A stretch of 64,000 bases of DNA from Longimicrobiales bacterium (lineage in GTDB: Bacteria > Gemmatimonadota > Gemmatimonadetes > Longimicrobiales > Gaopeijiaceae): assembly GCA_965219445.1 (NCBI GenBank), contig CBDCNQ010000005.1:928001-992000 (forward strand). The letters run 5' to 3'. Under the pieces are notes generated by a model, which was not told where the DNA came from, ran no database searches, and saw nothing but the letters and a program-made list of their open reading frames with translations. Of this stretch, positions 2,310 to 64,000 are shown piece after piece (the first letter of the stretch is position 1; every line of letters begins with the position of its first letter). A program made the position numbers and the translations under genes.

Positions 2310-3197
2310 TCAGAGTTCGACTGCGGCCGGATCGCGGTCGGCGGGTCCCCGGAGCGAGGAGCGGTCGCCGCCGCCGCCCAGGCCGAGCGTGCGCAGCAGC
2401 CGCGCCGCGGCCGGTCCGTTGGCGTGGAGCGCGAACCCGGCCGCCGCTTTCGCCTTGATGGCCCCTTCGCGGTAGTTGCCGGACGCGACCTCGATGTTGA
2501 CGCGTCCAGCTCGCCCGTCGGCATCGGCGTACTCGATCTGGGCGTCCGGGTAGAGCACGTGCCCTTCGTCGTCGAGGGGGAGTCCGAGTTCGCCGGCGGT
2601 GCGGTGCCGTTCGGCATCGGCGGCCCGCTTGCCGTCCTTCAGCCGCGCCGCCTCGCTGCCGCGCGCGACGGCGCTCTTGAGTTCGGTGTCGAGCCGGATG
2701 CGCCGCACTGCTGCGCCCCGGTCGAGCAGCCGCTGTTTCTCCTTCATGCAGGCGCGGTAGACGGCGGTGTCGTGCGCGGCCTCGGCAGGCCGGGTGCGTG
2801 CGAACCGGATTTCCTGGCTGGGATCCATTCCCCGTTCGGCGGCCCGCTTCCGAGCTTCGGCCACGCCGCTGCGGGTGAGCGTCAGGACCTTGAACGGGTT
2901 GCCCTTGGGTCCGGTGGCCGTGGTCTCGGTGACGAGCCCTTCGCGGACCCAGGCGTTCACGGCCCGCCGGGTGGTGTAGGGGTGTCCGCCGAAGTGGGCC
3001 TCGGCCAGGTCGCGGTACGAGACGGCGCCGTAGACGCCGATATCGGCGAGCCCGCGCGCACACCGTTCGGGGAAGGAGGTGGACCCGCGGTCCCGGCTCG
3101 CGGCGTATTCTCGGCGATGGCCGTCCCGCATGCGGTAGCGATTGCGGCTGGGTGGCGCGGCGGTCCGCGGGTCCGGTTCGACCGTGCGGTCGAACAT
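2310..3197 (-). CDS. wHTH + PD-(D/E)XK protein, replication-relaxation (Replic_Relax/MOB_C-like) candidate
   Basis: wHTH-like block, AAHD, YPDAQIEY...VNIEVASGNY; AGGAG RBS before ATG 3197. Confidence 0.55.
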   Translation of the reverse strand: MFDRTVEPDPRTAAPPSRNRYRMRDGHRREYAASRDRGSTSFPERCARGLADIGVYGAVSYRDLAEAHFGGHPYTTRRAVNAWVREGLVTETTATGPKGNPFKVLTLTRSGVAEARKRAAERGMDPSQEIRFARTRPAEAAHDTAVYRACMKEKQRLLDRGAAVRRIRLDTELKSAVARGSEAARLKDGKRAADAERHRTAGELGLPLDDEGHVLYPDAQIEYADADGRAGRVNIEVASGNYREGAIKAKAAAGFALHANGPAAARLLRTLGLGGGGDRSSLRGPADRDPAAVEL

Positions 3198-3218
3198 CTC
3201 CTGGCTCCTCACCGACCG

Positions 3219-5039: not shown

Positions 5040-6050
5040 TCAGCCTCCGGGGACTGGGGGGCGGGCCGGGTTCGCGGCAGCGCTGAGGCGTCCGCCGCCG
5101 CGCACCACGAGCGCCATGAACCCCGATCCGACGGATCCGGAGCCTGAGACGAGCATCGCGGCGAGCTCGCCCACCTTCATGCCGGCCATCAGGCCGGAGA
5201 CGACGAGCGGTAGCAGGACGACGACCCACAGCCCGAGCTCCGCGGGGTCGGAGGAGCCGGTGCCCATCAAGGCGCCGGTGTAGGTCGTGACGTAGCCCAT
5301 GCCCACGCCCATGAACACACGGAGAATGGCTCCCGCCACGACGCCGTAGAGTGTGTAGACGATGAGCGTGCGGAACCATCCCCAGAACAGGAACGCGAGC
5401 GGCTCGAACAGCAGCCAGGGGATGAACACGGGGCCGAGCAGGATCACGATCGCGAGCGCCACCTGCGCCCAGATCACCTGCGCGTAGGTCAGGCAGAAGA
5501 GCGCGACGAGGCCGAGCACGAGCGGCACGCCCATCATCAGCGCGACGAGGGACGAGAAGAACACGCTCACGCCCTCGGTCATGAGGGTCATCAGGCTCCC
5601 GCCCGACCATGCCGCGCCGAGCCGTGCGGCGAACGCCTGCACCAGCGCGGTCATCTCCGTGTAGCCGACGGACACGACGTCGGAGATGAACAGGTTCTGG
5701 AGCCAGATCCCTCCGGCCGCCACCATGGCCGGAAACGTGAAGCCCACGCCCGGGATCGGGACGCTGTAGTAATGGAGCAGCGTCCGGGGGATCGCGATCC
5801 CGAGCACGACACGCACGAGGGCCCAGGGCTCGAAGGTTCCGCTGAACGCGATCTTGAGGCCGCTCCATGCGACGACGATCGCCGCGAGACCGCCCCACAG
5901 CTGGTGGCCGAGCGTCAGCACGTCGGGCGCGGCGCCGCCGACCACGGTATCTAGCACGACGTCGAGGAACCCCTTGAAGTCCTGGAGCTGATCCGCCGGG
6001 ATCTGGGCCGGGACGTTCGGATCGATCGACTGCGGGGGAGGAAGTTGCAT
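5040..6050 (-). CDS. virB6: VirB6/TrbL-like T4SS inner-membrane protein
   Basis: Multi-TM, ILLGPVFIPWLLF motif, operon position. Confidence 0.85.
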   Translation of the reverse strand: MQLPPPQSIDPNVPAQIPADQLQDFKGFLDVVLDTVVGGAAPDVLTLGHQLWGGLAAIVVAWSGLKIAFSGTFEPWALVRVVLGIAIPRTLLHYYSVPIPGVGFTFPAMVAAGGIWLQNLFISDVVSVGYTEMTALVQAFAARLGAAWSGGSLMTLMTEGVSVFFSSLVALMMGVPLVLGLVALFCLTYAQVIWAQVALAIVILLGPVFIPWLLFEPLAFLFWGWFRTLIVYTLYGVVAGAILRVFMGVGMGYVTTYTGALMGTGSSDPAELGLWVVVLLPLVVSGLMAGMKVGELAAMLVSGSGSVGSGFMALVVRGGGRLSAAANPARPPVPGG

Positions 6051-6068
6051 GACGGTCGCTCCCGGGGC

Positions 6069-6998
6069 CTAAACTTGGCCGCCCATATAGAACGACGGGA
6101 CCTTGAAGAGGAGCCCCTCCCGGAGCCGGTCGCGGTTCTGCAGCGCGGCCGTGCGCATCGCATCGGCCATCGCGTTCGTACGGAGCCGCGCGTCCCTCCA
6201 CTCGGCGAGCCGCTCGAGCCGGTCGATCTCGGCCTGCTGCATCCGGTTCGCCTGCTCGACCGCCTGATAGGCGAGCACCTGCGCCACGGCGGCGTTGATC
6301 CGGCCCTGGGTCAGCGCGGCCGCGACCTGCGCCTGCTGGAGTGCCGTGTTGGACAGGTTCCCATTCGCGGTCAGGTCGTCGAACGAGCTCTGCGCGCTCT
6401 CGACGGTCGATGCGAGCGAGGCCGCGGCGTCCATCATCGCGTAGTCGAGCACCCTCTGCCGGTCGGCGGTCTCCTTGGCCTGGCGGTAGTCCTCCACCGC
6501 GCGCGACGACGCCTCGGCCGGGCGGTTACGGAACAGCTCGAGGATGTCCGCCTCGCTCACCTGGTCGGCCACCCCTTGGGCGCTCCGCCAGACGTCGGTG
6601 AACGAGCTTCCGCTCCCCATGTCACGCACCGCGTCGACCAGCTCGCCGGCCGCGCCGCTGAACTCGGAGCCCCAGTCGAGGTCGTTGCCGACGAGGCCGA
6701 TGGATCCGGCCGCGAGCTCCGCGAACGGTTCGACCAAAGCGTCCACCTCGCCGCGCGCGACGTCCTTCATGTGGTCGAGCTGCTCCTCGAGCTCGGTGAG
6801 CTGGCGGGTCATCGTCCGCATCTGGCTGAGCTGGTTCGCAAGCTGGGTCACTTGGTTCGCGATCATCTGGGCACGCTGAATCGCGCCGCCGATGTCGAAG
6901 AGGGCGTTGGCCGGCCCAGCGCTCGCGAGCATCAGGACCGAGACCAAGAGGACGGTGGTAAGGCTGCGGTGACGCATGATGAGCTCCTTGTTTGTCAT
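6069..6998 (-). CDS. VirB5/TrbJ-like exported protein
   Basis: Signal peptide (ANA), Q-rich coiled coil IANQVTQLANQL, upstream of virB6. Confidence 0.65.
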   Translation of the reverse strand: MTNKELIMRHRSLTTVLLVSVLMLASAGPANALFDIGGAIQRAQMIANQVTQLANQLSQMRTMTRQLTELEEQLDHMKDVARGEVDALVEPFAELAAGSIGLVGNDLDWGSEFSGAAGELVDAVRDMGSGSSFTDVWRSAQGVADQVSEADILELFRNRPAEASSRAVEDYRQAKETADRQRVLDYAMMDAAASLASTVESAQSSFDDLTANGNLSNTALQQAQVAAALTQGRINAAVAQVLAYQAVEQANRMQQAEIDRLERLAEWRDARLRTNAMADAMRTAALQNRDRLREGLLFKVPSFYMGGQV

Positions 6999-8263
6999 TG
7001 CCGTGTCCCGGACCTGGGGACCAGGACGTCGGACGTGAACCAGATGCGCAGGCGATGGCCGGCGCGGATCGTGATCGTGGGTAGCCGGTTCAGGAACCGG
7101 TCGAGAACCGAGGTCGCGCTCTGGCCGAGGCCTTGGCCGACGCCCGTCCTCAGGCCGAACGGCGAACCGCCGGCCAGGGCGAGTCCGCTTACGACGCCGA
7201 TGGCTCCGGCGGCCGCGAACGTGCTGAAGTAGTGGCGATCGACCTGGTCCCGAAGGGCGCCCTCGCCCGCCTGGTTCAGGCCGGTGAACTCGAGGTCGAT
7301 CCAGCTGCCGTCGGGGAGCAGCAGCCGGTGGAACGCGACGGCGAGCCGGCTCTGGTCCGGGTCCTGAACGGCCCGGGCCGTGCCGACGACGCGCGTGCCG
7401 CGCGGGATCAGGACCCGCTGGCGGTCGGCCGAATAGAACGGGACCGAGACCATGGCGAGCACCGGTCCCGGGAAATCGCCCGAGAGCTGCGTGAGGAGCA
7501 CCCCTTCGAGGAACGAGCCCTCGTGGATCCGCTCCCAGCCCGGCGGGTCGGCGGGTTGCACGCTCCGGCCGGGCTCAGCCGTGCCGGGGGTGCGAGGAGA
7601 GCTTGGCGGTGCGGCAGGTCCCGGGGAGCCGGAGAGGAGCTGCCCGGCCGCCAACTCCGCTTCCAATTCGTTCTCGAGCGCCCCGACCGACTGCTCGAAA
7701 GAGGCGAGCGCCGCTTGGACCGTGTTCTCGAGGAGCGCCACATCCGCGTCGGCCGCATCGCCGGTGCCGGCTTCGGACGACTCCGCGGTCGCGTTGGGAT
7801 CCCGGTACGACTGAGCCACGGGAAGGGCACGGAGCGAGCGGGTTCTTCGCTCCAGCTCCTCCAGGCGAAGCGCCTCCCTAAGCTCCGACTCGGCCGCGCT
7901 CACGCCTGGGATCAAGGCTGCGGTGTTCGGCGTCTCCGACTCGGTCTGGAGCCGAGCCATCTCTTCGGCGGCCGCAGCCTGCCGGCGCTCGAGCTCGGCG
8001 CGCGCCCGGGCGGCGGCCTCCAGAGTCTGCCGCTCGGCCTCGGCGCGAATACGGCCTTCGAGCGATCGGCCCATCCCGTCGTCGACCGCCTGCGCCTCGG
8101 GCAGGGCTACGAGAGTGGGCGCATCTTCCTCGGGACCCGTCATCGCCCACGAGAACAGGAGTCCACCGACGAGCACGGCGATCAACACCACGCCGGCCTT
8201 CGTCACGATGCCGCCCGGCAGCGCGCCTTCCGGGGGCCGGACCCACTGCTTCCAGCGGCTCAT
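6995..8263 (-). CDS. virB10: VirB10/TrbI
   Basis: N-terminal TM, coiled coil, LIPRGTRVVG, GALRDQVDRHY, PTITIRAG. Confidence 0.9.
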   Translation of the reverse strand: MSRWKQWVRPPEGALPGGIVTKAGVVLIAVLVGGLLFSWAMTGPEEDAPTLVALPEAQAVDDGMGRSLEGRIRAEAERQTLEAAARARAELERRQAAAAEEMARLQTESETPNTAALIPGVSAAESELREALRLEELERRTRSLRALPVAQSYRDPNATAESSEAGTGDAADADVALLENTVQAALASFEQSVGALENELEAELAAGQLLSGSPGPAAPPSSPRTPGTAEPGRSVQPADPPGWERIHEGSFLEGVLLTQLSGDFPGPVLAMVSVPFYSADRQRVLIPRGTRVVGTARAVQDPDQSRLAVAFHRLLLPDGSWIDLEFTGLNQAGEGALRDQVDRHYFSTFAAAGAIGVVSGLALAGGSPFGLRTGVGQGLGQSATSVLDRFLNRLPTITIRAGHRLRIWFTSDVLVPRSGTRQ

Positions 8264-9123
8264 CGGAGCGCTTCCCGCGGCGTGAACCGCCAGGCAGCCC
8301 GCTTGTCGCCGATCTGGAGCCATCCGTCGCCCAACACGTGTCGAGCGATGTAGAGGCCGTCCTCACTGAGGTCGTAGGCGACGAGCGCCGGTTCGCCGTC
8401 CCGGAGCTCATAGAGGGCCGGCGACTCCTGGGCATGCGAGCGCAGGTAGGTGAACTGCCCGTCGTGCCACATCGCCTCGACCAGGAACGGCCGGTCGGCC
8501 GCGTCCTCGTCGAGCCGGTACTCGAACGCGAGACGCTCCGGATAGCCGGCACGGAACGCCTCGATCGCCGACTCAGCCTGCGACCGGGCCTCCAGGATGC
8601 CGGCCTCGGCCGCCTCCCGGGCGCTGCGAGCCGCCTCGGCCGCCTCGGCGGCCATCTGCTGATAGGCCGCGACCTCGCTACGCGCGACGAACGCGGGACG
8701 GCCGCTGCCTCCGGAGAGCCGCGCCGCCTCTGCTCCAGACTCTACGCGAACGACCAGATGGGGCGGCCCGTCGCTCTGCTCAGCCACCAGGAACGAGTAG
8801 ATGCGCCCGGACTCGCAGACGAGCGCGATATTCGTCGCCGCGTCCGCCGAGAGGGGCTTCAGGAACGCGACGTTCGCGGCGCCCGTCAGATGCCAGTACT
8901 CCGAGTCGCCGACCACGAAATCCAGGATGTTCTCACCGGCGGGGAGCACGATCACCGTCGTGTGACGGACTTGGGTGCGGAGCCGGTGGATCCGATCCTC
9001 CCCCTCCTCCGGGACCGGCACCCGGAGGAACGCTTGGTCGTCCTCCTGCTGGGCGGTAGCCCCGGCCGGGAGCGCAGCCAAGAGAAGCGCGGTTAGAACG
9101 ATGGGTGTAGTCGGTGGTCGCAT
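8260..9123 (-). CDS. virB9: VirB9/TrbG
   Basis: Signal peptide, VGDSEYW, FLKP, TNIALV, DGQFTYL, PALY. Confidence 0.88.
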   Translation of the reverse strand: MRPPTTPIVLTALLLAALPAGATAQQEDDQAFLRVPVPEEGEDRIHRLRTQVRHTTVIVLPAGENILDFVVGDSEYWHLTGAANVAFLKPLSADAATNIALVCESGRIYSFLVAEQSDGPPHLVVRVESGAEAARLSGGSGRPAFVARSEVAAYQQMAAEAAEAARSAREAAEAGILEARSQAESAIEAFRAGYPERLAFEYRLDEDAADRPFLVEAMWHDGQFTYLRSHAQESPALYELRDGEPALVAYDLSEDGLYIARHVLGDGWLQIGDKRAAWRFTPREALR

Positions 9124-9129
9124 GGCGTA

Positions 9130-11574
9130 TCAGCTCCTTGCGTTGGGGGTGGGGGTGGGATCGTCTCGGCTCGCGAGAACCTCGATGGCCCGGGCGAGCC
9201 CGTGGCGCTCGACGGCACGGGCCCTCTCCTCGGCGTCCAATGCGGACGAGGTGTAGAGCCAGTAGCTCTCCGGATCGACCTCGAGCCGGAGCACCGCCGC
9301 CCCGTCCGGGCGGCGGAGGTAGAGCTCGCGTTTGGGGATCAGGCCCCGGACCTGCGCCAGCTCCGAGTCGTTCAGCCGGAACAGCGCCCCGACCTCGTCG
9401 GGGAGCTCCGGGTTCGCGAGGAACAGCTTGGTCGGGATCGACTCGAGGAGCGCCGCAGCGCCGGGCGTTGCCGTCACGTCGACGGCGGACTGCGTGGCGA
9501 GGATCAGCGCGGCGTTCTTCTTCCGCCACGTCTTCGCCGCCTCGGCCAGGTAGCTCAGCACCGCCGGGTCCTGCAGGTAGCGCCAGGCCTCGTCCACGAC
9601 CATCAACTTCAGGCGCGCCGCCTCGGACGGGTCCTCGACCTCGAGGCGCATGCGCTCGAGCAGGTAGGAGAGCGCCGCGTCGCAGAGATCCGGATGCTCG
9701 ACCGCCCCGGCGAGATCGATCACCTGCCAGTCGGCGAACTCGAGATCCGGCGCTCCGACGGCCGGGTTGTCGAAGTAGCCGCCCCACGCGCCGCCTTGGG
9801 TCCAGCGGCTCCAGGCCGGCCACGTCGCGGACGGAAGCGAGCTTGCCAGGACGCTCAGCGTCCGCCGCTCCGGCTCGAACGCATACAGATCCTCAATGCG
9901 CGCCCGGATCTCGCTCGTATCCGCTCCGCTCGCTTCCCAACCGCCGAGCTTCAGCAGCCGTAGCACCCAGCCCGTCAGGAACTGGAACGTCCGCGTGCCC
10001 GCCGGGAGCGCGAACGGCTGAAGCCGGAGCGTCGGCTCCGCCTCGCCTGGCGAGAGCTCCAGGTAGCGGCCCCCGAGAAACCGGGTCAGCCAGCGGTACG
10101 AGCCGCCCAAGTCCAGAATCAGGACGCGCGGGTCGTACCTGAGAGCTTCGACCAGGAGGAAGTTCAGTGTGAAGCTCTTGCCCGAGCCCGTCGCGCCGAG
10201 CATCAACGTGTGGCCCACATCACCGGCGAACAGGTCGTAGTGGTACGCCGTGCGCCACGGGGTCTCCAAGACCGCGAGCGACTCACGGCCAAGGTGTTTG
10301 CTCTTAGCCCGGCCCTTGGGCGGCCCGAAGAGCGGCGCCAGGCACGCGGCCACTCCGGCCGATACGAACACCTTCCGCACCTGCCGCCCACGCGGCTGGG
10401 CCGGCAGCCGGGAGAACCAGGCCGGCAGCTGGCCGTAGCCCTCCCGGATCACCTTCGCGTCGTGCGCGGCGAACAGCCGACGCAGGTCGCCGTCCAGCCG
10501 CTCGATGCTTCCCAGCTCGCCGTGGAGCGCCACGGTCAGCGTCGCCTCGCCGTAGCTCACCCCGTCCGCTTCCAGCTCGACCAGCGCCTCGCCCAGACGG
10601 TCCGACTCCGTGGCCGCGGCCGAGTCGACCATCGCGGCGGCCGTGCCCTCCGTCTCCTGCACGTGCGCCATCATCGAGTAACGGCGCGCGAAGTAGTGCC
10701 GCTGCGTGCCACGGATCCGGCGCCGGGCCGCCTCCATCGCCCAGGGCCGCCACTCGAGCGAGACCGTCATCACCGCGTCCAGGCAGTAGAGCTCCCGGAG
10801 CAGGTTGGCGTAGGCTTGGCCGGGCGGGGACAGGAGCGAGTACAGGATCACCGGCTCGCCGTCGAGGCGCAGGTGCGAACGCTCCGCCTCGAGCTCCGAG
10901 AGGGCGAGCCGCCAGTTCATACCGCTCCCCGTCGCGCCGTCCCACACCGTGCCCGGACGGTTGATCAGCTCGGAGAGAAACCGCGAGGCTTCGGCGGGCT
11001 CGAGCATCTCGATCGGCGTGTGCTCCTCCACGAGTGCACGGCCCGCGTCCACCGTCGCGCGAAAGCGGGCGGCGGCGGCCTCGATCTCGGAACCGAGGTA
11101 GGTGGGCGCGCTCGCCCGGTGGCGCTGCCACCACTGCCTGAGACGGGAGGCTCTTCCCGATGTTGGCCCGTCGGCGACCGCCCGGAGCCGGGGATCGTGC
11201 GACCAGACCAGGTAGGCCCCGAGCCGCTGCACGCGGCGCGAGAGAAACGCGCCGCGCTTACGCTGCGACACCGCTACGATGCCGGAACCCTCGTCGTCAG
11301 CAGCCTCGGGCGAGGCCGGGCGGCGGAGTAGATAGAAGTAGAGGCGTGTGTCGGAGTCCAAACCCGAGAGCAACCGCTGCCAGCGGCCCAGCACGCGGTC
11401 GATCTGCTCGGGCGAACGCCCGTCGACCACCGCAGGCGCTAGCCGTCCGGCCGCGATCAGCTCGCCCGAGCGGGTCAGGCACGTGCGGCCGTCCTCGAGC
11501 CAGCCCCAGTAGGGCAGCTCCTCGGCCAGTGAGCCGGCCGCCTCGTGGTCCCGGAGCTCCGCGGAGATCCTCAT
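9130..11574 (-). CDS. virB4: VirB4/TrbE ATPase
   Basis: GHTLMLGATGSGKS Walker A, VVDEAW Walker B, RKKN, LATQS. Confidence 0.95.
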   Translation of the reverse strand: MRISAELRDHEAAGSLAEELPYWGWLEDGRTCLTRSGELIAAGRLAPAVVDGRSPEQIDRVLGRWQRLLSGLDSDTRLYFYLLRRPASPEAADDEGSGIVAVSQRKRGAFLSRRVQRLGAYLVWSHDPRLRAVADGPTSGRASRLRQWWQRHRASAPTYLGSEIEAAAARFRATVDAGRALVEEHTPIEMLEPAEASRFLSELINRPGTVWDGATGSGMNWRLALSELEAERSHLRLDGEPVILYSLLSPPGQAYANLLRELYCLDAVMTVSLEWRPWAMEAARRRIRGTQRHYFARRYSMMAHVQETEGTAAAMVDSAAATESDRLGEALVELEADGVSYGEATLTVALHGELGSIERLDGDLRRLFAAHDAKVIREGYGQLPAWFSRLPAQPRGRQVRKVFVSAGVAACLAPLFGPPKGRAKSKHLGRESLAVLETPWRTAYHYDLFAGDVGHTLMLGATGSGKSFTLNFLLVEALRYDPRVLILDLGGSYRWLTRFLGGRYLELSPGEAEPTLRLQPFALPAGTRTFQFLTGWVLRLLKLGGWEASGADTSEIRARIEDLYAFEPERRTLSVLASSLPSATWPAWSRWTQGGAWGGYFDNPAVGAPDLEFADWQVIDLAGAVEHPDLCDAALSYLLERMRLEVEDPSEAARLKLMVVDEAWRYLQDPAVLSYLAEAAKTWRKKNAALILATQSAVDVTATPGAAALLESIPTKLFLANPELPDEVGALFRLNDSELAQVRGLIPKRELYLRRPDGAAVLRLEVDPESYWLYTSSALDAEERARAVERHGLARAIEVLASRDDPTPTPNARS

Positions 11575-11873
11575 CGCCCGCTCCGGATCACGAGATGCCA
11601 CGGCTCTTCGGCCCACTTGCCCGGGTCGAAACGGGCCGGATAACGCGTCCCGGCGCGGAGCACGCCAAGCATGTCCGGGTCTTTGCGGCCGGCCAGCCAT
11701 CCGGCCCCAAAGCCGACCGCGAACACCACGCCGCCCGTCACCAGCGAAGCCGTCGCGTTCCACATCGCGAGCCCGAGCGTCGCGACGAGGAGGAACCCCC
11801 TACGCTCGACCCCCAGAATCGTCAGCGGACGGTTCAACGCCGCATAGCCGGCCCAGCGCCTCAGGCCCCTCAT
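11571..11873 (-). CDS. virB3: VirB3/TrbD
   Basis: ALNRPLTILGVER, two TMs, KDP. Confidence 0.85.
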   Translation of the reverse strand: MRGLRRWAGYAALNRPLTILGVERRGFLLVATLGLAMWNATASLVTGGVVFAVGFGAGWLAGRKDPDMLGVLRAGTRYPARFDPGKWAEEPWHLVIRSGR

Positions 11874-12160
11874 CAGAAGAGCCACGCCAGGAAGTTCGCC
11901 GCGCCCATCGCCATCCCGAGACCGAAGATGATCCCGGCCAGCGTCCGCTTGCTACCGCCCTCACCGAACGCGAACATCAGCCCGCCCACCACGATCGCGA
12001 TCAGCGACAGCCCCCTCGCGATCGGACCCGTGAACTGCGCCTGGAGCTCATTGACCGCCTCCACCCACGGGCTCGTCCCCTGCGCCCAGAGCTGACCGGG
12101 CATGAGCATCCACAGCGCGGCCCACGCAGCCGCTCGCACCGTCCTCGAGAACGTCTTCAT
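11873..12160 (-). CDS. virB2: VirB2/TrbC pilin
   Basis: Signal peptide, SPW, TGPIARGLSLIAIVVGGLMFAFGEGG. Confidence 0.9.
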   Translation of the reverse strand: MKTFSRTVRAAAWAALWMLMPGQLWAQGTSPWVEAVNELQAQFTGPIARGLSLIAIVVGGLMFAFGEGGSKRTLAGIIFGLGMAMGAANFLAWLF

Positions 12161-12699
12161 GTATCTTCCTTTGTCCTTGGGTCAGTGGGCGGCACCTCCG
12201 CGTCGCCCCGGCTTTCCGCGATCCGCTCGCGGATCCACGCGTCCACCTCCTCCTCGATCCAGCCCACGGCGCGCGAGCCCAGCAATACCGGCCGGGGGAA
12301 GCACCCCTCGCGCATCCGCACCTTGATCGTGCTCCGCCCGAGCCCCGTGCGGGCCGTCACCTCCGGCCGCCGCAGGAAGCGGGTCGGCGGATTTGTTCTC
12401 TGTTCGATCGGTTGTTCACTCATCGCTCTGCTGCTCCTCGTTCTCCTCGCCCGTGACGAAGGCTTCCGGCGCCGGTGGCCTCGGGACGGAGTCCGAGCGC
12501 CGCCCGAGTCCAGGTCGTAGTCCGCCACGAACGCCAGAACCCGGTCCGCCGTTCTCAGCGACAGCGAGCGCCCGCCGTCGAGCTGGCGCATCAGGTTCGG
12601 GTCGCCCAGCGCCTTCAAGCCGAACGTCGTCGGACTCAGGCCCGTCCGCCCGAGGAACACCCTCACACGCGAGTCGAACTGCTGCTCCAGCGTCTCCAT
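12157..12699 (-). CDS. Two-domain regulator: Cro-like HTH fused to AlpA domain
   Basis: N-terminal TTFGLKALGDPNL; C-terminal FLRRPEVTARTGLGRSTI...FPRPVLLGSRAVGW. Confidence 0.8.
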   Translation of the reverse strand: METLEQQFDSRVRVFLGRTGLSPTTFGLKALGDPNLMRQLDGGRSLSLRTADRVLAFVADYDLDSGGARTPSRGHRRRKPSSRARRTRSSRAMSEQPIEQRTNPPTRFLRRPEVTARTGLGRSTIKVRMREGCFPRPVLLGSRAVGWIEEEVDAWIRERIAESRGDAEVPPTDPRTKEDT

Positions 12700-19639: not shown

Positions 19640-20098
19640 ATGGTCTCGGTCCCGTTCTATTCGGCCGACCGCCAGCGGGTCCTGATCCCGCGCGGCACGC
19701 GCGTCGTCGGCACGGCCCGGGCCGTTCAGGACCCGGACCAGAGCCGGCTCGCCGTCGCGTTCCACCGGCTGCTGCTCCCCGACGGCAGCTGGATCGACCT
19801 CGAGTTCACCGGCCTGAACCAGGCGGGCGAGGGCGCGCTTCGGGACCAAGTCGATCGCCACTACTCCAGCACGTTCGCGGCGGCCGGAGCCGTCGGCGTC
19901 GTAAGCGGACTCGCCCTGGCCGGCGGTTCGCCGTTCGGCCTGAGGACGGGCGTCGGCCAAGGCCTCGGCCAGAGCGCGACCTCGGTTCTCGACCGGTTCC
20001 TGAACCGGCTACCCACGATCACGATCCGCGCCGGCCATCGCCTGCGCATCTGGTTCACCTCCGATGTCCTGGTCCCCAGGTCCGGGACACGGCAATGA
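19640..20098 (+). pseudogene. virB10: virB10 3' fragment
   Basis: Almost identical to the last 152 aa of 6995..8263. Confidence 0.9.
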
Positions 20099-21024
20099 CA
20101 AACAAGGAGCTCATCATGCGTCACCGCAGCCTTACCACCGTCCTCTTGGTCTCGGTCCTGATGCTCGCGAGCGCTGGGCCGGCCAACGCCCTCTTCGACA
20201 TCGGCGGCGTGATTCAGCGTGCCCAGATGATCGCGAACCAAGTGACCCAGCTTGCGAACCAGCTCAGCCAGATGCGGACGATGACCCGCCAGCTCACCGA
20301 GCTCGAGGAGCAGCTCGACCACATGAAGGACGTCGCGCGCGGCGAGGTGGACGCTTTGGTCGAACCGTTCGCGGAGCTCGCGGCCGGATCCATCGGCCTC
20401 GTCGGCAACGACCTCGACTGGGGCTCCGAGTTCAGCGGAGCGGCCGGCGAGCTGGTCGACGCGGTGCGTGACATGGGGAGCGGAAGCTCGTTCACCGACG
20501 TCTGGCGGAGCGCCCAAGGGGTGGCCGACCAGGTGAGCGAGGCGGACATCCTCGAGCTGTTCCGTAACCGCCCGGCCGAGGCGTCGTCGCGCGCGGTGGA
20601 GGACTACCGCCAGGCCAAGGAGACCGCCGACCGGCAGAGGGTGCTCGACTACGCGATGATGGACGCCGCGGCCTCGCTCGCATCGACCGTCGAGAGCGCG
20701 CAGGACTCGTTCGACGACCTGACCGCGAACGGCAACCTGTCAGCCACGGCACTCCAGCAGGCGCAGGTCGCGGCCGCGCTGACCCAGGGCCGGATCAACG
20801 CCGCCGTGGCGCAGGTGCTCGCCTATCAGGCCGTCGAGCAGGCGAACCGGATGCAGCAGGCCGAGATCGGCCGGCTCGAGCGGCTCGCCGAGTGGAGGGA
20901 CGCGCGCCTCCGTACGAACGCGATGGCCGATGCGATGCGCACGGCCGCGTTCCAGAACCGCGACCGGCTCCGGGAAGGGCTCCTGTTCAAGGTCCCGTCG
21001 TTCTACATGGGCGGCCAAGTTTAG
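20095..21024 (+). CDS. VirB5/TrbJ-like protein, copy 2
   Basis: Only a few substitutions versus 6069..6998. Confidence 0.7.
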   Translation: MTNKELIMRHRSLTTVLLVSVLMLASAGPANALFDIGGVIQRAQMIANQVTQLANQLSQMRTMTRQLTELEEQLDHMKDVARGEVDALVEPFAELAAGSIGLVGNDLDWGSEFSGAAGELVDAVRDMGSGSSFTDVWRSAQGVADQVSEADILELFRNRPAEASSRAVEDYRQAKETADRQRVLDYAMMDAAASLASTVESAQDSFDDLTANGNLSATALQQAQVAAALTQGRINAAVAQVLAYQAVEQANRMQQAEIGRLERLAEWRDARLRTNAMADAMRTAAFQNRDRLREGLLFKVPSFYMGGQV

Positions 21025-21042
21025 GCGCGGGGAGCGACTGTC

Positions 21043-22053
21043 ATGCAACTCCTGCCACCGCAGTCGATCGATCCGAACGTCCCGGCCCAGATCCCCGCCG
21101 ATCAGCTCCAGGACTTCAAGGGGTTCCTGGATGTCGTGCTCGATACGGTGGTCGGCGGCGCCGCGCCCGACGTGCTGACGCTCGGCCACCAGCTCTGGGG
21201 CGGTCTCGCGGCGATCGTCGTCGCGTGGAGTGGGCTCAAGATCGCGTACAGCGGCACGCTAGAACCGTGGGCGCTCGTGCGTGTCGTGCTCGGGATCGCG
21301 ATCCCCCGGACGCTGCTCCATTACTACAGCGTCCCGATCCCGGGCGTGGGCTTCACGTTTCCGGCCATGGTCGCGGCCGGAGGGATCTGGCTCCAGAACC
21401 TGTTCATCTCCGATGTCGTGTCCGTCGGCTACACGGAGATGACCGCGCTGGTGCAGGCGTTCGCCGCACGGCTCGGCGCGGCATGGTCCGGCGGGAGCCT
21501 GATGACCCTCATGACCGAGGGCGTGAGCGTGTTCTTCTCGTCCCTCGTCGCGCTGATGATGGGCGTGCCGCTCGTGCTCGGCCTCGTCGCGCTCTTCTGC
21601 CTGACCTACGCGCAGGTGATCTGGGCGCAGGTGGCGCTCGCGATCGTGATCCTGCTCGGCCCCGTGTTCATCCCCTGGCTGCTGTTCGAGCCGCTCGCGT
21701 TCCTGTTCTGGGGATGGTTCCGCACGCTCATGGTCTACACGCTCTACGGCGTCGTGGCAGGAGCCATCCTGAGGGTCTTCATGGGCGTGGGCATGGGCTA
21801 CGTCACGACCTATACCGGCGCCTTGATGGGCACTGGCTCCTCCGACCCGGCCGAGCTAGGGCTGTGGGTAGTCGTCCTCCTCCCGCTCGTCGTCTCCGGC
21901 CTGATGGCCGGCATGAAGGTGGGCGAACTCGCCGCGATGCTCGTCTCCGGGTCCGGATCCGTCGGGTCGGGATTCATGGCGCTCGTGGTGCGCGGAGGCG
22001 GGCGCCTCAGCGCTGCCGCGAATCCGGCCCGCCCCCCAATCCCCGGAGGCTGA
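21043..22053 (+). CDS. virB6: VirB6/TrbL, copy 2
   Basis: Near identical to 5040..6050. Confidence 0.85.
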   Translation: MQLLPPQSIDPNVPAQIPADQLQDFKGFLDVVLDTVVGGAAPDVLTLGHQLWGGLAAIVVAWSGLKIAYSGTLEPWALVRVVLGIAIPRTLLHYYSVPIPGVGFTFPAMVAAGGIWLQNLFISDVVSVGYTEMTALVQAFAARLGAAWSGGSLMTLMTEGVSVFFSSLVALMMGVPLVLGLVALFCLTYAQVIWAQVALAIVILLGPVFIPWLLFEPLAFLFWGWFRTLMVYTLYGVVAGAILRVFMGVGMGYVTTYTGALMGTGSSDPAELGLWVVVLLPLVVSGLMAGMKVGELAAMLVSGSGSVGSGFMALVVRGGGRLSAAANPARPPIPGG

Positions 22054-22064
22054 AGGAGACGTCC

Positions 22065-22733
22065 ATGAACCGAGAACACGATGCCGGCCGCGAGTACGCG
22101 GAGATCTGGGGCGAGACCGTCGAGGCGAACCGGAAGCTCCGGACGCTGGCGATGATCCTTGCCGCCACATGCCTCACGCTCGGCGTGCTCCTGCTCCGCA
22201 TCGCGACCGTCGAGCCGCCCCGCCCGATCGTCGTACGGGTCGACGAGGTCGGCCGCGCCGAGGCCGTGGCCTACGAGGCCGCAACGGCGCAGGCGGATCC
22301 GCTCGATCCCACGACCAAGTACTTCCTCAACCGGTTCATCTCCGACTTCTACTCCAGGCGCCAGGCGACGGTCGAGGAGCACTGGACGCGGAGCCTCCGG
22401 TTCCTCTCGACCGAGCTGGCGAACGCCGCGTTCACGCGCGACGGCGCCGAGGTCGCCGCCATGGCGGCCGGCACCTCCGACACCGAGCACCAGGTCGAGC
22501 AGGTCGTGCTCCGCATCCACCCCGCACCGGAGGCGCCGCACGGCGCGACCGCCGATTTCGATCTGGTCCACCTCAGGCAGGGGCAGGAGACCCGGCGCGA
22601 GCGCTGGTCGCTCACGCTCCGGTTCACCTTCCTCACCGTCATCCCCTCCGAGCTCGTCGTCTACAACCCGATGGGCATCCTGATCACCTACCTCCAGGCC
22701 GACCGTGCCCTGGTCACGGAAGCCCCGCGATGA
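22065..22733 (+). CDS. virB8: VirB8/TrbF
   Basis: Single TM, PIVVRVDEVG, C-terminal NPMGILIT. Confidence 0.85.
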   Translation: MNREHDAGREYAEIWGETVEANRKLRTLAMILAATCLTLGVLLLRIATVEPPRPIVVRVDEVGRAEAVAYEAATAQADPLDPTTKYFLNRFISDFYSRRQATVEEHWTRSLRFLSTELANAAFTRDGAEVAAMAAGTSDTEHQVEQVVLRIHPAPEAPHGATADFDLVHLRQGQETRRERWSLTLRFTFLTVIPSELVVYNPMGILITYLQADRALVTEAPR

Positions 22734-23212
22734 TCGCGCATCTCGCCGGGCGAGAGAGGGCGCTCGAGCCGTTCGGCTGGACGGGACGCCAGGCCGAATG
22801 GATCGCGCTCGTCTGTCTCCACAGCGGCGTGTTCACCCGAGACCAGATCTCCGACTGGCTCGGGATCCACCGCCGCACCGCGCGCCGGTTCATCCGGGAC
22901 ATTTTGGACCAGAGGCTGGCGGCCATGGACAGGCTTGCGGGCCGGAGGGTCTGCCGGATCTCCGCGCGCGCAGTCTATCGGGCGCTCGGAGCCGAGGATA
23001 TCCGCCACCGCCGGATCGCGTCGGCCGAGGTGCTCGTTCGCCGCCTGCTCTCGCTCGACTACGTGATCGGGCACACCGGCCTGCCGTGGCTGCCCACCGA
23101 ACCGGAGAAGGTCGGCGCGTTCGAGGCGCTCGGCATCGAGCGCAGCATCCTGCCCGTCCGGGTGTACCGGGGCGCCGCAGGCGAGACGCGGCGCTACTTC
23201 CCGCTCAAGTAG
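22730..23212 (+). pseudogene. N-terminal half of T4SS-linked wHTH protein, split by an integrative element
   Basis: ATGA-coupled to virB8; ends RRYFPLK*; frame resumes FPLKLPVALD at 35710. Confidence 0.85.
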
Positions 23213-23397: not shown

Positions 23398-24582
23398 ATG
23401 CGTAAACGACCGCTTACGGCTGCCTTCGTGGCAAGGGTGAAGACGCCGGGACGCTACGGCGACGGGGGGCACGGCGGGCTCGGGCTGTACCTCCGCGTCC
23501 ACCGAATGAAGTCCGGGCGCGTCTCCAGGTCCTGGGGTCAGCGGATTCGAGTGGGAGGGAAGCCCACCAATCTCGGACTGGGCCCGTACCCGGTCGTGAC
23601 GCTCAAGGAGGCGAGAGAGAAGGCGCTGGAGAACAGGCGGTCGATCCATTGGGGCCACGACCCGAGAGCCGCGAGGGTTCCCACCTTCGAGGCGGCCGTC
23701 GAGAAGGTGATGGCGATCCACTCGCCGACCTGGAAAAACCCCTCCTGCATCGCCGGGCAGTGGCGGCAGACGCTGCGGGATTACGCATATCCGCGCATCG
23801 GCCGGAAGCGCGTGAACGAGGTCGCGACGGGCGACGTGCTCGACATCCTCAAGCCCATCTGGTCGAGCAAGCCCGCAGCGGCGAGGGTCGTACGTCAGCG
23901 GATCGGCGTGGTGATGAAGTGGGCCGTCGCGAAGGGCTACCGGTCGGACAACCCGGCGGGTGACGCCATCGCCGCCGCGCTACCGCGCAACGGCAATGCC
24001 ACCAGACATCACCAGGCGCTCCCGCACGGCGAGGTGTCGGCAGCTCTGGTCAAGGTCCGCAACTCGGGGTCCCATGCCGGTGTCCGGCTGGCGCTCGAGT
24101 TCATGGTCCTGACCGCGACACGCTCGAACGAGGTCCGGGGCGCGGCGTGGGACGAGGTCGAGCACGATGTCTGGACCATTCCCGCCAGCCGCATGAAGGC
24201 GAAGCGCGCTCACCGGGTTCCCCTGTCGAGGCGGGCCCTGGAGATCCTTGAGGAAGCCCGGAAGCGCCACGACGACGGCGGGATCGTCTTCCGGGGCGCG
24301 AAGGGAGGAGGCATCAACGCCTCGATGTTCAGCGGCTTGCTCCGGCATCTCGGCATCGAGGGAACGCCTCACGGGATGAGGTCCTCGTTCCGCGACTGGT
24401 GTTCCGAGACGGGTGTGGCTCGCGAGGTAGCCGAAGCGGCGCTGGCCCACGTCGTGAAGAACAGGGTCGAGGCCGCGTACGCCCGCTCGGACCTGCTGGA
24501 CCGGAGGCGCGAGGTCGTGGAGGCCTGGGCCGACTATCTCGCCAGCGAACGTCGAGACCCGGAGGCCGAACCGATCCGTTGA
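23398..24582 (+). CDS. P4-like tyrosine integrase with arm-binding domain
   Basis: PGRYGDG, GLYLRV, GLGPYPVVTLKEARE, TATRSNE, RMK, HGMRSSFRDW, ALAH, AYARSD. Confidence 0.95.
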   Translation: MRKRPLTAAFVARVKTPGRYGDGGHGGLGLYLRVHRMKSGRVSRSWGQRIRVGGKPTNLGLGPYPVVTLKEAREKALENRRSIHWGHDPRAARVPTFEAAVEKVMAIHSPTWKNPSCIAGQWRQTLRDYAYPRIGRKRVNEVATGDVLDILKPIWSSKPAAARVVRQRIGVVMKWAVAKGYRSDNPAGDAIAAALPRNGNATRHHQALPHGEVSAALVKVRNSGSHAGVRLALEFMVLTATRSNEVRGAAWDEVEHDVWTIPASRMKAKRAHRVPLSRRALEILEEARKRHDDGGIVFRGAKGGGINASMFSGLLRHLGIEGTPHGMRSSFRDWCSETGVAREVAEAALAHVVKNRVEAAYARSDLLDRRREVVEAWADYLASERRDPEAEPIR

Positions 24583-32315: not shown

Positions 32316-32620
32316 GGGAGCGACCCCTGGAGGGCGGGGGCCAGCGTGTGAAAACACACCTGGCCCCGCGCCCGTACCAGGCCCTCGGCCTGGGGGGTCG
32401 CTCCCTTCCCGGTCGGTGCCGCCCGTGCGGCGCTGACCGCCCTGCTCGCGGAAGCGTAAGACACTGCCGCCTCTGCGGATATGCGGTGGGTCCGGTGTGA
32501 ATCGCCGGAGGGGAAAAGTGTGAATCGACCCTCCACGTCGTTTTCACACCCAGTCGTGGCATGACAGGCAGGCCGACCGTGGGAAGTGCGCCCCGGAGAG
32601 GCGCACTGGCTGGGGTTCCT
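32316..32620 (-). repeat. Conserved iteron/hairpin module, type A
   Basis: GGGAGCGACCCC 32316-32327 and GGGGTCGCTCCC 32394-32405; GTGTGAATCG at 32495 and 32518. Confidence 0.85.
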
Positions 32621-34464: not shown

Positions 34465-34552
34465 CTGAGGGTAGATTTCCGTTGCGCTTTCCGCCTAGGA
34501 AGCGATCTTATCCTATGGAAACATATGCTTTCACGGGACTTAGATAGGAGAA

Positions 34553-35596: not shown

Positions 35597-35718
35597 AAAC
35601 CCAACGGGTAACACGACTTACGACCTTCGGACACACCATGTGATACACGTCTCTCACAAGGTGTTGCCAAGTCTTTGTCCCATAGAGACTTGCGAAGACT
35701 GATCCCGGCTTCCCGCTC
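35597..35718 (+). repeat. attR-like end, homologous to 63341..63462
   Basis: Ungapped 122-bp alignment sharing CGACTTACGAC, TTCGGACACACCATGTGATACACG, GCCAAGTC, ACTGATCCC and GCTTCCCGCTC. Confidence 0.9.
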
Positions 35719-36177
35719 AAGCTGCCGGTCGCACTGGACTCGGGCCGTGCAGTGTTCGTCTACGTCGATCCCGGACACGATACCACGACCGCGCTACGCT
35801 CCTGGGCCGTGGCACATCGCGGCCTCTGGGAAGCGCTGCGGGAGCGCGGCCGATCCATCGAGGTCGTGGCCGTCGTCCGCACCGTGAGGGAGCTGCAGCG
35901 GGCCCTGACGATCCTCGAGAGCTGGACCAACACATCTACAGCATCCTGCGCCTCCGCTGTTCCGGAACCCGACAGTGCGGCCCGCCGCGAGATCGTCCGA
36001 ATCGAGCAGGCCATCCGCGCCAAGGATGAGCGGGTGCTCAAAGAGTATGGCGACCTGCAGGCCTGCCTCAAGCGGATCGTCGAGCTGAACGACCTCCACC
36101 GATCCTCGAGTCCAGGAACGTTGATCCACGGCTTCGCGACATGGCGCTCGAGACGGCTCCCTGGAGGCGGATTTTGA
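35710..36177 (+). pseudogene. C-terminal half of split wHTH protein
   Basis: FPLKLPVALDSGRAVFVYVDPG..., in frame with 22730..23209 once the element is removed. Confidence 0.85.
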
Positions 36178-36211
36178 ACGCGGATCGGCGAGGGCCGGTG
36201 CTGATCGGCGG

Positions 36212-36447
36212 GTGCACATCAGACAACGGGGTGCATGTGCACCGAAACGCCATTTTCATGTGCGCGCCAGCGCTCCCTTATGTGCCTGGCTGTCTTACAG
36301 TTGCGGCACGGCCGCCGGAGCTGCGACGCCGCTCCGGAGCTTTCGGCCGAAGAAGGGAGCGACCCCCCCTTTCGGGATGCCTCGATCGGCATCGGGGAGG
36401 GCTGGCATGTGCACACCCATGCCACCCTCCCACGGGGGGTCGCTCCC
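36212..36447 (+). repeat. Conserved iteron/hairpin module, type B
   Basis: GTGCACAT 36212, CATGTGCAC 36234, CATGTGCGC 36257; hairpin 36355-36447 with CATGTGCAC at 36406. Confidence 0.85.
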
Positions 36448-36511
36448 ATCCATGGATCCCTACGGGAAGGTTGTCAGCGCGATGATGAGGCTGGCGACGC
36501 TCGTCCTCGTG

Positions 36512-36645
36512 GATCATCCCCGCGAGGTCATAGAGGCGGCACTCGCACAGGTGGTCCGGAACGGTCGAGGCGGCCTACAGGTGAACGGACCTGTTCGAGC
36601 GTCGGCGCCGGCTCATGAACGACTGGACCGCCTACGTGAGTAGGG
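36512..36645 (+). pseudogene. P4-like integrase C-terminal remnant
   Basis: HPREVIEAALAQVVRN...EAAY...DLFERRRRLMNDWTAY across a frameshift. Confidence 0.7.
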
Positions 36646-38083: not shown

Positions 38084-38209
38084 TGATTTGGCCTCGGTTA
38101 CTCGGACCAGATAAAGGGGTTTCAAGATAGGTCAATGGACCCTTCGGATCTGACTACGCATGCGCATCCGCTTCCTTACCAATCTACTGTCCAGGAAAAT
38201 CAGGGGCGC

Positions 38210-39130: not shown

Positions 39131-39622
39131 GTGTACACATCAGAAGGCCAGTCTTAGTGCACATCGACCCCGACGTCACATGTGCATCTCTGGATCGGCA
39201 TCGGCCGCGTCGAAAACCTCGCGGGTCCGCAAAGCGCGTGTTGGCTCAGACATCTAGACCTCCCCGGCCACTTTGCGGGTGGCCTCTTCGAGGATGTCAG
39301 TCAGCGCTCGCAACCCACCGTCGATCAATTGGCGGTCGGTGACACGGGGTTCCGATGACTCCCCGCGGAGGGCGTCGTAGCGGGCGCCGACGAGGCAGGC
39401 GAGGAGAAATGCGATACCTTAGCGCCCGTGGACCGCGAACACCTTCTTGTCCATGCGGATGCTGCCGTCGAGGTCGATCAGGTAAGTTTAGCTTGCGGGT
39501 CGCCATCAGGGCCTCGATGGCCGCTCGGGCGTTTTCGAGCGACCTCGTGGAAACTCGAATCATCTTGCTCGCGTCGGGCATTGGCCTTGCTCCGGGTCCA
39601 GGGTTGTGCGCGCTGATCTCTT

Positions 39623-45348: not shown

Positions 45349-45760
45349 GGGAGCGACCCCCCCAGGGGCGGTGCGAGGTTTGTGAAACCCGCACCGCCCC
45401 ACGCCATTACTAGGGCGTCAGCAGGGGGGGTCGCTCCCGTACCGGTCAGTGCCTCCCGTGCGGCGCTGACCGACCTGGCCGCGGATGCGTAAGATGCGAC
45501 CGCGCCAGCGGATAGGCAGGAAGTCCCGTGTGAATCGCCGGAGGGCCAAAGTGTGAATCGCCTCCCCACGTCGTTTTCACATCCCAGTGGTGGCATGAGA
45601 CGCAGATCGGTCATCGGAAGTGCGCCCCGGAGAGGCTGACCGTTTGCCAGGTGTTTCCGCTGTGGATCGGCCCTTGGCCAGTCTGCTGGCATGCCTGCTT
45701 CTTCAGCGCGACGCTGCGTTTCACGGCGGCCTACAAACCGCCATTCTCTCCGAGCAGCAG
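45349..45760 (-). repeat. 3' remnant of wHTH gene plus type A iteron/hairpin module
   Basis: GGL*AAVKRSVALKK...TWQTVSLSGAHFR* (stop 45611) homologous to 63760-63906; GTGTGAATCG at 45528 and 45551; hairpin 45349-45438. Confidence 0.85.
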
Positions 45761-51269: not shown

Positions 51270-51550
51270 CGTCTTGCGCCTTCGCGGCCGGGTCGGTCAG
51301 CGCCGCACGGGCAGCACTGACCGGGACGGGAGCGACCCCCCAGTCCGAGGGCCTGGTACGGGTTCGGACGCAGGTGTGTTTTCACACCCCTGCCCCCGTC
51401 CCTTGGGGTCGCTCCCGATCCATCAATCCCTACGCGGGAAGGCGGTTTGAGCGCCGCTTCGAGGCGGCGGATCACCCGTTCGCCGACCGGCCGGCCGTCT
51501 GGCAGCCGGGCATCACCGAGCAAGGCCGGGGTACCCCCGATGGCTCGGGC
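51270..51550 (+). repeat. Type A hairpin module and flank
   Basis: Hairpin 51328-51416; reverse complement of ~32185-32460. Confidence 0.85.
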
Positions 51551-51589: not shown

Positions 51590-51770
51590 GGCGACCGTGG
51601 TGCAACCGCAAAGCAGCCAGCGACATACGGAACCGCTGGCGCGCACATCGCAACGGCGGTTCCGTGCACATGCACCTCGATGTCGATGTGCACGCGCGGT
51701 ACACCACCGACCCCCGGCGATCGGCGGTCAAGTTCCGCCCCCCGAGCCGCTCTCGACACGTCTGCAAAAC
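51590..51770 (-). repeat. Type B iteron module with wHTH gene 3' end
   Basis: GCGCACATC 51641, GTGCACATG 51664, ATGTGCAC 51686; aligns with 36130-36320. Confidence 0.75.
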
Positions 51771-63340: not shown

Positions 63341-63462
63341 AAACCCAGCGGGTAACGCGACTTACGACGTTCGGACACACCATGTGATACACGCAGCCCG
63401 TAGGGTGTAGCCAAGTCATTGTCCCATCGGGACTTGCGAACACTGATCCCTGCTTCCCGCTC
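63341..63462 (+). repeat. Second attR-like end
   Basis: Homologous to 35597..35718; core CTTCCCGCTC at 63453-63462. Confidence 0.9.
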
Positions 63463-63906
63463 CGGCTGCCGGTCGCGCTGGACGCCCGGCGTGCCGTTTT
63501 CGTCTACCTCGATCCGGGCCACGAGACAGCGACGGCACTCCGCTCCTGGGGCGCGGCGCACCGCGAACTCTGGAAGGCGCTCTGGGATCGCGGCTGCGGG
63601 ATCGAGGTCGTGGCCATCGTCCGGACACCGGAGGAGGACAGCCGGGCGGAGACCGTGCTCGCCAACTGGGCGCGGGATCCCCGCCCCTCCGAATTCGACC
63701 ACGGGATCGGCCGCGAGATCGACCTTATCGACCAGGCCATCATCAAGGGGGATGTCCCGGTCCTGATGGAGTACGGAGGCTTGCAGGCCGCCATGAAGCG
63801 CAGCGTCGCGCTGACGAAGCGGGCGCGCAGGCAGGCAGGGCGGGGGCTGATGCAACGCACCGACACCTGGCGGACGGTTCGGCTCGCGGGGGCACGCTTC
63901 CGATGA
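63454..63906 (+). pseudogene. C-terminal half of a second split wHTH homologue
   Basis: FPLRLPVALDARRAVFVYLDPG..., homologous to 35710..36177. Confidence 0.85.
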
Positions 63907-63933
63907 GAAGCCCACGCCTTGTGCCGTACTGGA

Positions 63934-63988
63934 GCGTGCATGAGACGTTGGGGGTCGATGCACACAATGCACCCCTGAAGATGCGCAC
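63934..63988 (+). repeat. Iteron module, type C (hairpin would lie beyond the window)
   Basis: GCGTGCAT 63934, GATGCACAC 63957, GATGCGCAC 63980. Confidence 0.65.
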
Positions 63989-64000
63989 ACGCCGGATTCA

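Follow-up and report, generated by a model that had tools for sequence, protein, structure and literature searches.

Behind a gene that encodes a wHTH protein next to type IV secretion system (T4SS) genes, here called gene X, lies a non-coding module of short repeats and a branched hairpin, which raises the question of what this module does and which protein reads it. The locus is part of a 64,000-nucleotide stretch (the window; G000:C5:928001-992000) within a 4.56-Mb Longimicrobiales genome. An earlier note on this DNA proposed a new origin system with three specificities, in which a cis origin (oriT or oriV) is bound by the adjacent wHTH protein, and named a structured RNA as the alternative.

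Genomic setting

The window is made up of nested integrative elements stacked upon each other, with virB genes, tyrosine integrases, MobC/MOBP remnants and defence cargo detected by Pfam. The MOBP relaxase/MobC genes at 38135-38737 and 53161-54824 sit on islands separate from the ICE that carries the module. Defence cargo is found at 25156-30204, 40037-43329, 46635-50039 and 55395-61977, including Schlafen/AlbA, two Type ISP restriction-modification genes, McrBC, HigBA and a type I restriction system. Sel1-repeat and Calx-beta proteins, which are typical symbiont cargo, are encoded at 31146-32042 and 13939-15663. The nearest named homologues of X belong to Longimicrobiales/Palauibacter MAGs, and others to MAGs of Acidobacteriota, Gammaproteobacteria and Chloroflexi. 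A link to sponges comes from one run with homologous DNA that carries the label sponge metagenome and from Palauibacter, which we take to be sponge-associated. The genes that frame the module are as follows.

2313..3212, minus strand: Replic_Relax/MOBC-like candidate relaxase of a neighbouring ICE copy (wHTH and invariant residues)
5043..12699, minus strand: AlpA-virB2-B3-B4-B9-B10-(B5 slot)-B6 operon of the adjoining ICE copy (Pfam; the gene in the virB5 slot has no match in Pfam)
19640..22730, plus strand: virB10(3')-(B5 slot)-virB6-virB8, 5' of X (Pfam)
22730..23209, plus strand: 5' half of gene X, encoding the wHTH with D-type recognition helix HRRTARR, directly 3' of virB8 and interrupted by an island
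23197..23209, plus strand: 13-bp att core CTTCCCGCTCAAG, left island end
23398..24582, plus strand: Arm-type tyrosine integrase of the island that splits X (Pfam)
35709..35721, plus strand: 13-bp att core, right island end
35722..36177, plus strand: 3' half of gene X, encoding a predicted endonuclease-like fold and a helical insert, of B-type element origin

Copies of the module in the window

Directly behind the 3' half of X, the module and its remnants or relatives in the window comprise the following features.

36212..36219, minus strand: inverted type B motif (GTGCACAT on the plus strand; from sequence)
36235..36242, plus strand: direct repeat 1, type B (from sequence)
36258..36265, plus strand: direct repeat 2, type B, 23 bp past repeat 1 (from sequence)
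36355..36447, minus strand: branched hairpin with outer stem P1, which holds the invariant AGCGACC/GGTCGCT core (from folding)
36376-36393 and 36395-36431: inner stems P2 and P3 of this hairpin, with a fourth motif copy at 36407 in P3
36457..36467, minus strand: P4 mini-hairpin with a GTA (GNA) triloop on the bottom strand (from folding)
36464..36511, plus strand: GGGAAGG as a probable ribosome-binding site, followed by ~10 N-terminal codons of a truncated gene for the coupling protein (from 36482, a start judged by eye against coupling-protein N-termini of other loci)
32316..32548, minus strand: orphan type A module within the island, behind a decayed X tail
39133..39187, minus strand: decayed type B repeat set, the sixth in the window and absent from the earlier note
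45349..45613, minus strand: orphan type A module after a decayed X tail
51328..51416, plus strand: A-type hairpin, half of a collapsed head-to-head module pair
51641..51693, minus strand: the other half of this pair, type B repeats that have lost their hairpin
63453..64000, plus strand: att core, 3' half of X and type C repeats; the hairpin runs past the window end

A motif search of the window recovered every motif and arm position that had been described before, and the layout of one inverted and two direct motifs holds with a spacing of 23 bp in every listed set. The direct repeats of type B (ATGTGC[AG]C) start at 36235/36258 (36234/36257 with the preceding C counted) and 51641/51664, those of type A at 32495/32518 and 45528/45551, and those of type C at 63957/63980, while the GGGAGCGACCCC/GGGGTCGCTCCC arms lie at 32316-32405, 36355-36447, 45349-45438 and 51328-51416. 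The claim that this architecture follows gene X at five sites is borne out for the motifs at all five, but X is reduced to decayed 3' tails at 32.6, 45.6 and 51.7 kb. Likewise, the arms of the fourth copy at 51328-51416 are present, but they do not form one module with the nearby repeats, as an A-type hairpin on the plus strand faces B-type repeats on the minus strand; what is left at 51.3-51.7 kb is a head-to-head pair after a deletion. The decayed set at 39133-39187 stands upstream of a MobC remnant, and the type C module at 63.9 kb has an A-type hairpin, which lies just past the window edge. On contig C5 the core arm pairs are far more abundant than expected by chance, with 29 pairs against 3 in total across five shuffles, and 40 are found genome-wide. 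A matching motif inside the hairpin, also described earlier, occurs in 44 of 47 loci of other genomes (shuffled control: mean 11.8, maximum 25) but in only five of the 10 intact copies of this genome; one of these copies was assigned the wrong type by the search pattern, yet counts as non-cognate under both assignments.

A chimeric gene X

The island that splits X is 12.5 kb long and bounded by a 13-bp direct repeat, and the same att ends border other half genes elsewhere in the genome. A D-type copy matches the 5' half at 99% identity and a B-type copy the 3' half at 93%; therefore the protein reconstituted from 22730-23209 and 35722-36177, which had been suggested as the starting point for homologue searches, is a non-cognate chimera whose D-type helix is joined to a B-type module and mismatches the repeats at 36.2 kb. 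The intact copy L001:8178-9110 was used instead. Among the joints listed from public contigs compared over 22000-36800, none restores X. Many modules of this genome are non-cognate chimeras.

Islands of this Arm-type integrase family hit one 13-bp site in the middle of X (23197-35721 in the window; C5 454497, 607532, 648111, 1180402, 991466 and 1188948; C4 1187683; C2 220599) and pair halves of different specificity types. In an intact chimera of X at C5 595505, a B helix stands ahead of a D module. A second integrase family, with an end like a tRNA T-arm, is fused to an inverted type B motif (C4 202204; C5 39860, 577833 and 1207104) and looks as if it inserts into the origin. At C1 189365 of the same genome the GGAGCGACCCC arm is tandemly duplicated, possibly a break-and-join scar at the 5' arm.

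Conservation behind X homologues

Homologues of X were collected as 107 near-full-length matches (loci L011-L120, in which one copy from this genome is included and some loci are present twice), 105 of them with enough downstream DNA. The arm pair follows 100 of these 105 close homologues, 172-187 nt past the stop codon among the matches listed, close to the earlier estimate of about 175 bp. Of 301 genomes in the host phylum, 35 have X, as do 42 of 351 in the phylum of a second genome, G301. Behind 21 of 25 more X homologues from the latter phylum, down to ~20% identity, the AGCGACC/GGTCGCT core recurs in the pattern A[GA]CGACC...GGTCG[CT]T together with 6-16 further perfect pairs whose sequence varies freely, a combination matched by 5 of 10,000 shuffled sequences. 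The four loci without the pattern are L130, L143, L140 (truncated) and L150 (a variant core by eye); L130 and L143 are without a hairpin, and in L143 X stands directly ahead of a coupling-protein-like ORF (by eye). Some homologues (P0013, P0024, P0034, P0115 and P0123) are predicted as a single protein that joins a VirB8 Pfam domain to X, and in P0123 the C-terminal helical insert is present twice.

The recognition helix of X tracks the repeat motif

Rather than the three specificities first described, the repeats fall into five classes among close homologues, with further motifs in distant ones. Of 116 loci, 114 have a first direct repeat that belongs to one of the five; the other two, L039 and a truncated copy, fit no class and do not enter the class analysis. 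The classes and the X helices that accompany them are as follows.

Class A: [GA]TTCAC with helix HPEQ
Class B: TGTGC[AG] with helix DRxxA or SRFK
Class C: ATGC[GA]CAC with helix HH[ED]R/K
Class D: GGACAC with helix HRH/HRR/HHR/HNR/RGR
Class E: CGGTGCAC with helix HRGT

In a non-redundant set of 54 X proteins (<90% identity), helix class equals repeat class in 53 loci, with both sets of classes defined post hoc after data inspection, and the sole mismatch is a chimera in this genome. Mutual information with the motif is highest at X columns 49, 50 and 48, which form the start of helix 48-60 in the AlphaFold model of X (pLDDT 89.6), and a smaller signal is seen at wing residue 72. The proposal that motif type follows recognition-helix residues is thereby supported, with the motif tracking residues 48-50. 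On a tree of X residues 96-311 the motif switches 13 times and helix class also 13 times, against seven motif changes on a tree of the wHTH. Nearest-neighbour prediction of the motif succeeds at 0.93-0.94 from the wHTH and at 0.65-0.76 from other parts of X, including parts encoded physically nearer to the module, which predict it worse than the wHTH does. A test of independent pairs yielded 3-4 pairs per class, none opposite in direction and, at such low numbers, none significant. Distant loci retain the 23-bp spacing and the fourth copy, but their motifs are new ones, among them TGGGACA, GGATCTAC and TCTTCCA; at the greatest distance the spacing is 12 bp (GCGGACC, GGGGAAC, GGGACGA). As judged by co-variation, the repeats are matched to the adjacent wHTH protein.

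Protein X and a candidate relaxase

The 311-residue X has a clear wHTH, whose structure matches are MarR/ArsR regulators, and a C-terminal domain resembling SdaI (Z 7.7, rmsd 3.6, 117 aligned) and NucS (Z 7.0, rmsd 3.1, 102 aligned), both under the caution line of Z 8; Foldseek returned weak rows to VC1899 and R.BspD6I. Searches of Pfam, NCBIfam and PDB sequences placed X in no family beyond weak HTH matches, and no Rep family was found among 66 X proteins in Pfam or three in NCBIfam.

In intact elements the gene order is virB2-3-4-9-10-5-6-8, X, the module, a VirD4-like coupling protein, VirB11, a small ORF, ArdC, a 300-aa relaxase-like gene, a second small ORF and an integrase, and the coupling-protein start lies at most 900 nt away in 66 of 76 loci. 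In the distant homologues L153, L154, L156, L158, L159 and L162, where the scan covered 88 of 104 candidate ORFs, X is preceded by the relaxase-like gene and followed by the module, a small ORF, the coupling protein and VirB11, and in L157 and L161 the relaxase-like gene, X and the module stand next to an integrase, with no T4SS among the ORFs scanned. The module therefore sits where an oriT is expected, in an element with a T4SS, a coupling protein and a relaxase-like gene, and it has the architecture of one, with a conserved inverted repeat/hairpin and accessory-protein repeats. An ORF of 75-105 aa between module and coupling protein occurs in 8 of 11 distant loci (L151-L162) and is missing from the close clade. 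By eye it is RHH-like and in a TrwA-like position; its best such match has E=0.3 (ORF E73, ParG), with bacterioferritin scoring higher.

The relaxase-like gene, represented in the window at 2313-3212, had been left out of the earlier note, which was right about a wHTH protein next to the module but missed this second gene, a candidate nicking enzyme by residues and context. Its family has the invariant residues H147, D148, P222, D223, E227, E241 and Y247, with D223, E227, E241 and Y247 invariant in 14 of 14 proteins. A D-E-E metal motif and a downstream Tyr are present, and their equivalence to the TraX residues is inferred. The nearest named family by ESM is Replic_Relax (0.90, 191 features); PF13814 matches one of 14 members (E=1e-4, 22.8 bits, below the curated cut-off of 25.3), and NCBIfam relaxase models gave no match. 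The N-terminal wHTH matches MarR (E=9e-5), with VIA Z up to 11.7 to MarR-type wHTH; the AF2 model has a pLDDT of 81.9, and wHTH proteins take up the list of its structure matches. On these residues the gene probably encodes the nicking enzyme, and it is filed here as MOBC-like and not as a confirmed MOBC member. A profile comparison gave no sign of common descent of X and the relaxase-like family outside the wHTH, which is all that hhalign aligns, at a probability of 3%.

The nearest competitor to such a division of labour is that the module is an oriT but X itself nicks, as a TraX-like wHTH plus endonuclease fold with an unusual active site, or that both proteins catalyse. X could be catalytic because its C-domain is predicted to be endonuclease-like, its architecture with a domain aligning to SdaI and NucS is TraX-like, and many X copies in this genome have no relaxase-like gene nearby. 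In addition, TraX by itself binds direct repeats 70-120 bp from nic and cuts at that distance, according to the accessible part of PMC12857230. Against this, no conserved D-E-E catalytic motif was found in 36 diverse X proteins, while the D/E/E/Y set of the relaxase-like protein is complete. Among the 36, invariance is limited to G33 and R94, and D110 is the sole acidic column at or above 90%; D110 is also the only invariant acidic residue in 53 X sequences, and the PD-position aspartate and D176 are each confined to a subgroup. Since the test for MOBC catalytic motifs failed, X was not filed as a relaxase; it is probably non-catalytic as judged from its residues, and nicking by X is unlikely. 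Across motif classes in 26 elements with both genes, the relaxase-like helix GHP[YFH]TTRRAV is near-invariant while the X helix varies, and between motif types the relaxase-like HTH region is 80% identical against 41% for the X helix (26 loci).

Structure and strand of the hairpin

In 46 close hairpins, P1 has seven invariant pairs and five pairs with compensatory changes and is 97.5% paired. The score of the whole hairpin is 0.232 against at most 0.037 when slid, a difference to be read with the relatedness of these 46 sequences in mind. P4, a 4-bp mini-hairpin past P1, has matches in 46 of the 54 loci, and in every one of them the bottom strand of the loop spells G-N-A. All four bases occur at the middle position, and the closing pair covaries, C:G being the commonest. 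In DNA, d(GNA) loops are very stable, most of all with a C:G closing pair (PMC3201870, in part), and the mini-hairpin points to single-stranded DNA of the bottom strand.

The bottom strand gives the better fold in 51 of 52 hairpins, with a strand gap of -4.9 kcal/mol against -1.15 in shuffled sequences, which lean towards the bottom strand too (72%), and it remains the better one in 45 of 52 with RNA parameters. Of 57 single mismatches, 49 become G-G, G-A or G-T when read on the bottom strand, while P2 carries top-strand pairs of the G-U type. Strand asymmetry is missing from the 13 most distant hairpins (-1.39 against -1.14), and no P4 was seen in them by eye. The hairpin likely folds on the bottom strand. 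Mapping of nic from the breakpoints of chimeric modules was symmetric, 8 against 8.

Replication origin, operator or oriT

If the module were an origin for vegetative or single-strand replication of the excised element, X would be an initiator that binds iterons, and the hairpins of the bottom strand would serve to signal priming. Iteron-like repeats do adjoin a wHTH gene and fall into specificity groups, as iterons do in plasmid incompatibility, and GNA-capped hairpins of single-stranded DNA occur in priming signals too. Proteins of the Replic_Relax family are listed under replication as well as relaxation in the part of PMC3424549 that covers them. However, the module lies within a mobilisation cassette, 5' of the coupling protein, in close and distant homologues alike; it is GC-rich throughout with no AT-rich unwinding tract, and X had no relatives among 72,556 plasmids in two queries. 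The 40 chromosomal cores of this one genome would also be costly if each were an active oriV, and a replication origin is accordingly improbable. The earlier idea of a cis origin for the adjacent wHTH protein with specificity groups thus stands by the helix-motif match, and of its two options the gene context favours oriT over oriV.

Less probable again is that the repeats are an operator through which X controls the coupling-protein operon, with the hairpin as an mRNA leader whose structure masks the ribosome-binding site: the module is directly 5' of the coupling-protein gene, P4 overlaps GGGAAGG, the X wHTH resembles MarR/ArsR regulators and P2 has its top-strand G-U pairs, but a scan found no sigma-70-like promoter or terminator, Rfam gave 0 matches at gathering score in the window, the transcribed strand folds worse and carries no d(GNA) loop in P4, and orphan and head-to-head modules persist without downstream genes. 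The structured RNA that had been offered as an alternative is disfavoured by the same Rfam result and strand preference. A tRNA scan of the window gave no match, and three RNA runs contained scattered low-depth contigs, none over 36402-36524, and are uninformative on transcription.

The explanation that we favour, with a probability of about 0.6, is that the module is an oriT with divided labour, in which the variable repeats are for X to read and the invariant stem is where the MOBC-like protein acts. Taken together, the oriT readings are likely.

Comparison with known oriT systems

An oriT of this kind resembles several described systems. The oriT/TraX of pAD1 from Enterococcus faecalis, CloDF13 MobC and PF13814 are alike in their relaxase type, wHTH plus PD-(D/E)XK, in a direct-repeat binding site far from the cut and in a VirD4-like coupling protein, as far as the available text of PMC12857230 and PMC6736028 goes. 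Unlike in these systems, two wHTH proteins appear to share the work here, with the repeat-tracking helix in X and the catalytic residues in the other, and the host is diderm, with a VirB-type T4SS and many specificity classes. In pAD1, nic lies in a large inverted repeat.

The pWBG749 oriT/SmpO system of Staphylococcus aureus shares an identical core for a common relaxase and diverged repeats that are read by an accessory factor, which sets the oriT subtype about that core. Its specificity switching is likewise partly uncoupled from the rest of the element, with several oriT mimics per mobilisable element (PMC8136818, in part). By description, SmpO is a small ribbon-helix-helix protein on plasmids, whereas X is a wHTH plus endonuclease-like fold on chromosomal elements that have a MOBC-like relaxase. 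TcpK of pCW3 from Clostridium perfringens is also a wHTH accessory protein on oriT tandem repeats, in the accessible text of PMC6137059. TcpK binds mainly via its wing, has nothing like an endonuclease domain and works with TcpM, a tyrosine recombinase, as relaxase; in contrast, the strongest signal of X is in the recognition helix. Finally, IMEs integrated in oriT have been described (PMC7563843), and just as IMEs insert in or mimic an ICE oriT, integrase islands here target X and the inverted motif of the module; the described IMEs are streptococcal, with Rep_trans relaxases.

Because its workings resemble those of the pAD1 and pWBG749 oriT systems, the module is better seen as a variant than as the new kind of origin that had been proposed. 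No literature describing this element or its origin was found in a search that most subscription papers lie outside, and the accessible part of PMC3548315 mentions only a basal Acidobacteria MPF-T clade.

Proposed mechanism and implications

In the divided-labour model, X would bind the variable repeats on double-stranded DNA, set specificity and help to load the relaxase, while cutting, at or close to the invariant stem of the hairpin, would fall to the separate MOBC-like relaxase. The bottom strand would become single-stranded, fold and be the transferred strand; since that strand would be transferred, the coupling-protein and relaxase genes would reach the recipient last, as they do in classical systems. 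Orphan modules on small integrase-bearing islands may be oriT mimics, mobilised in trans by an ICE of the matching type. Only 10 of the 40 hairpin cores of this genome lie behind an intact X and seven have virB6/8 nearby, whereas 24 have an integrase within 5 kb and five form close head-to-head pairs; few X-linked and many integrase-near cores are as expected for oriT mimics.

A more far-reaching version, which we offer tentatively, is a widespread and so far undescribed MOBC relaxosome of two components: a paralogue with a dead endonuclease fold and a hypervariable recognition helix would direct a constant nickase to a branched origin of single-stranded DNA. Part of that version are a helix-to-motif code with the five close classes, about ten further motifs in distant loci and mid-gene islands that reshuffle helix and origin. 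MOBC transfer is itself poorly understood, with no covalent intermediate seen in the systems covered by the accessible parts of PMC12857230 and PMC6736028. If the far-reaching version is true, satellites with several oriT mimics and their helper ICEs would form a programmable, cross-phylum mobilisation network in sponge microbiomes.

The family provides a sharply defined candidate origin, whose invariant 7-bp stem core persists down to protein identities of about 20%, and the core pattern can be used to find further such origins. Natural pairs of helix and motif make oriT specificity testable by swaps of a few residues. An oriT of this kind would explain how dozens of relaxase-less defence islands move in uncultured Gemmatimonadota, Acidobacteriota and other sponge symbionts.
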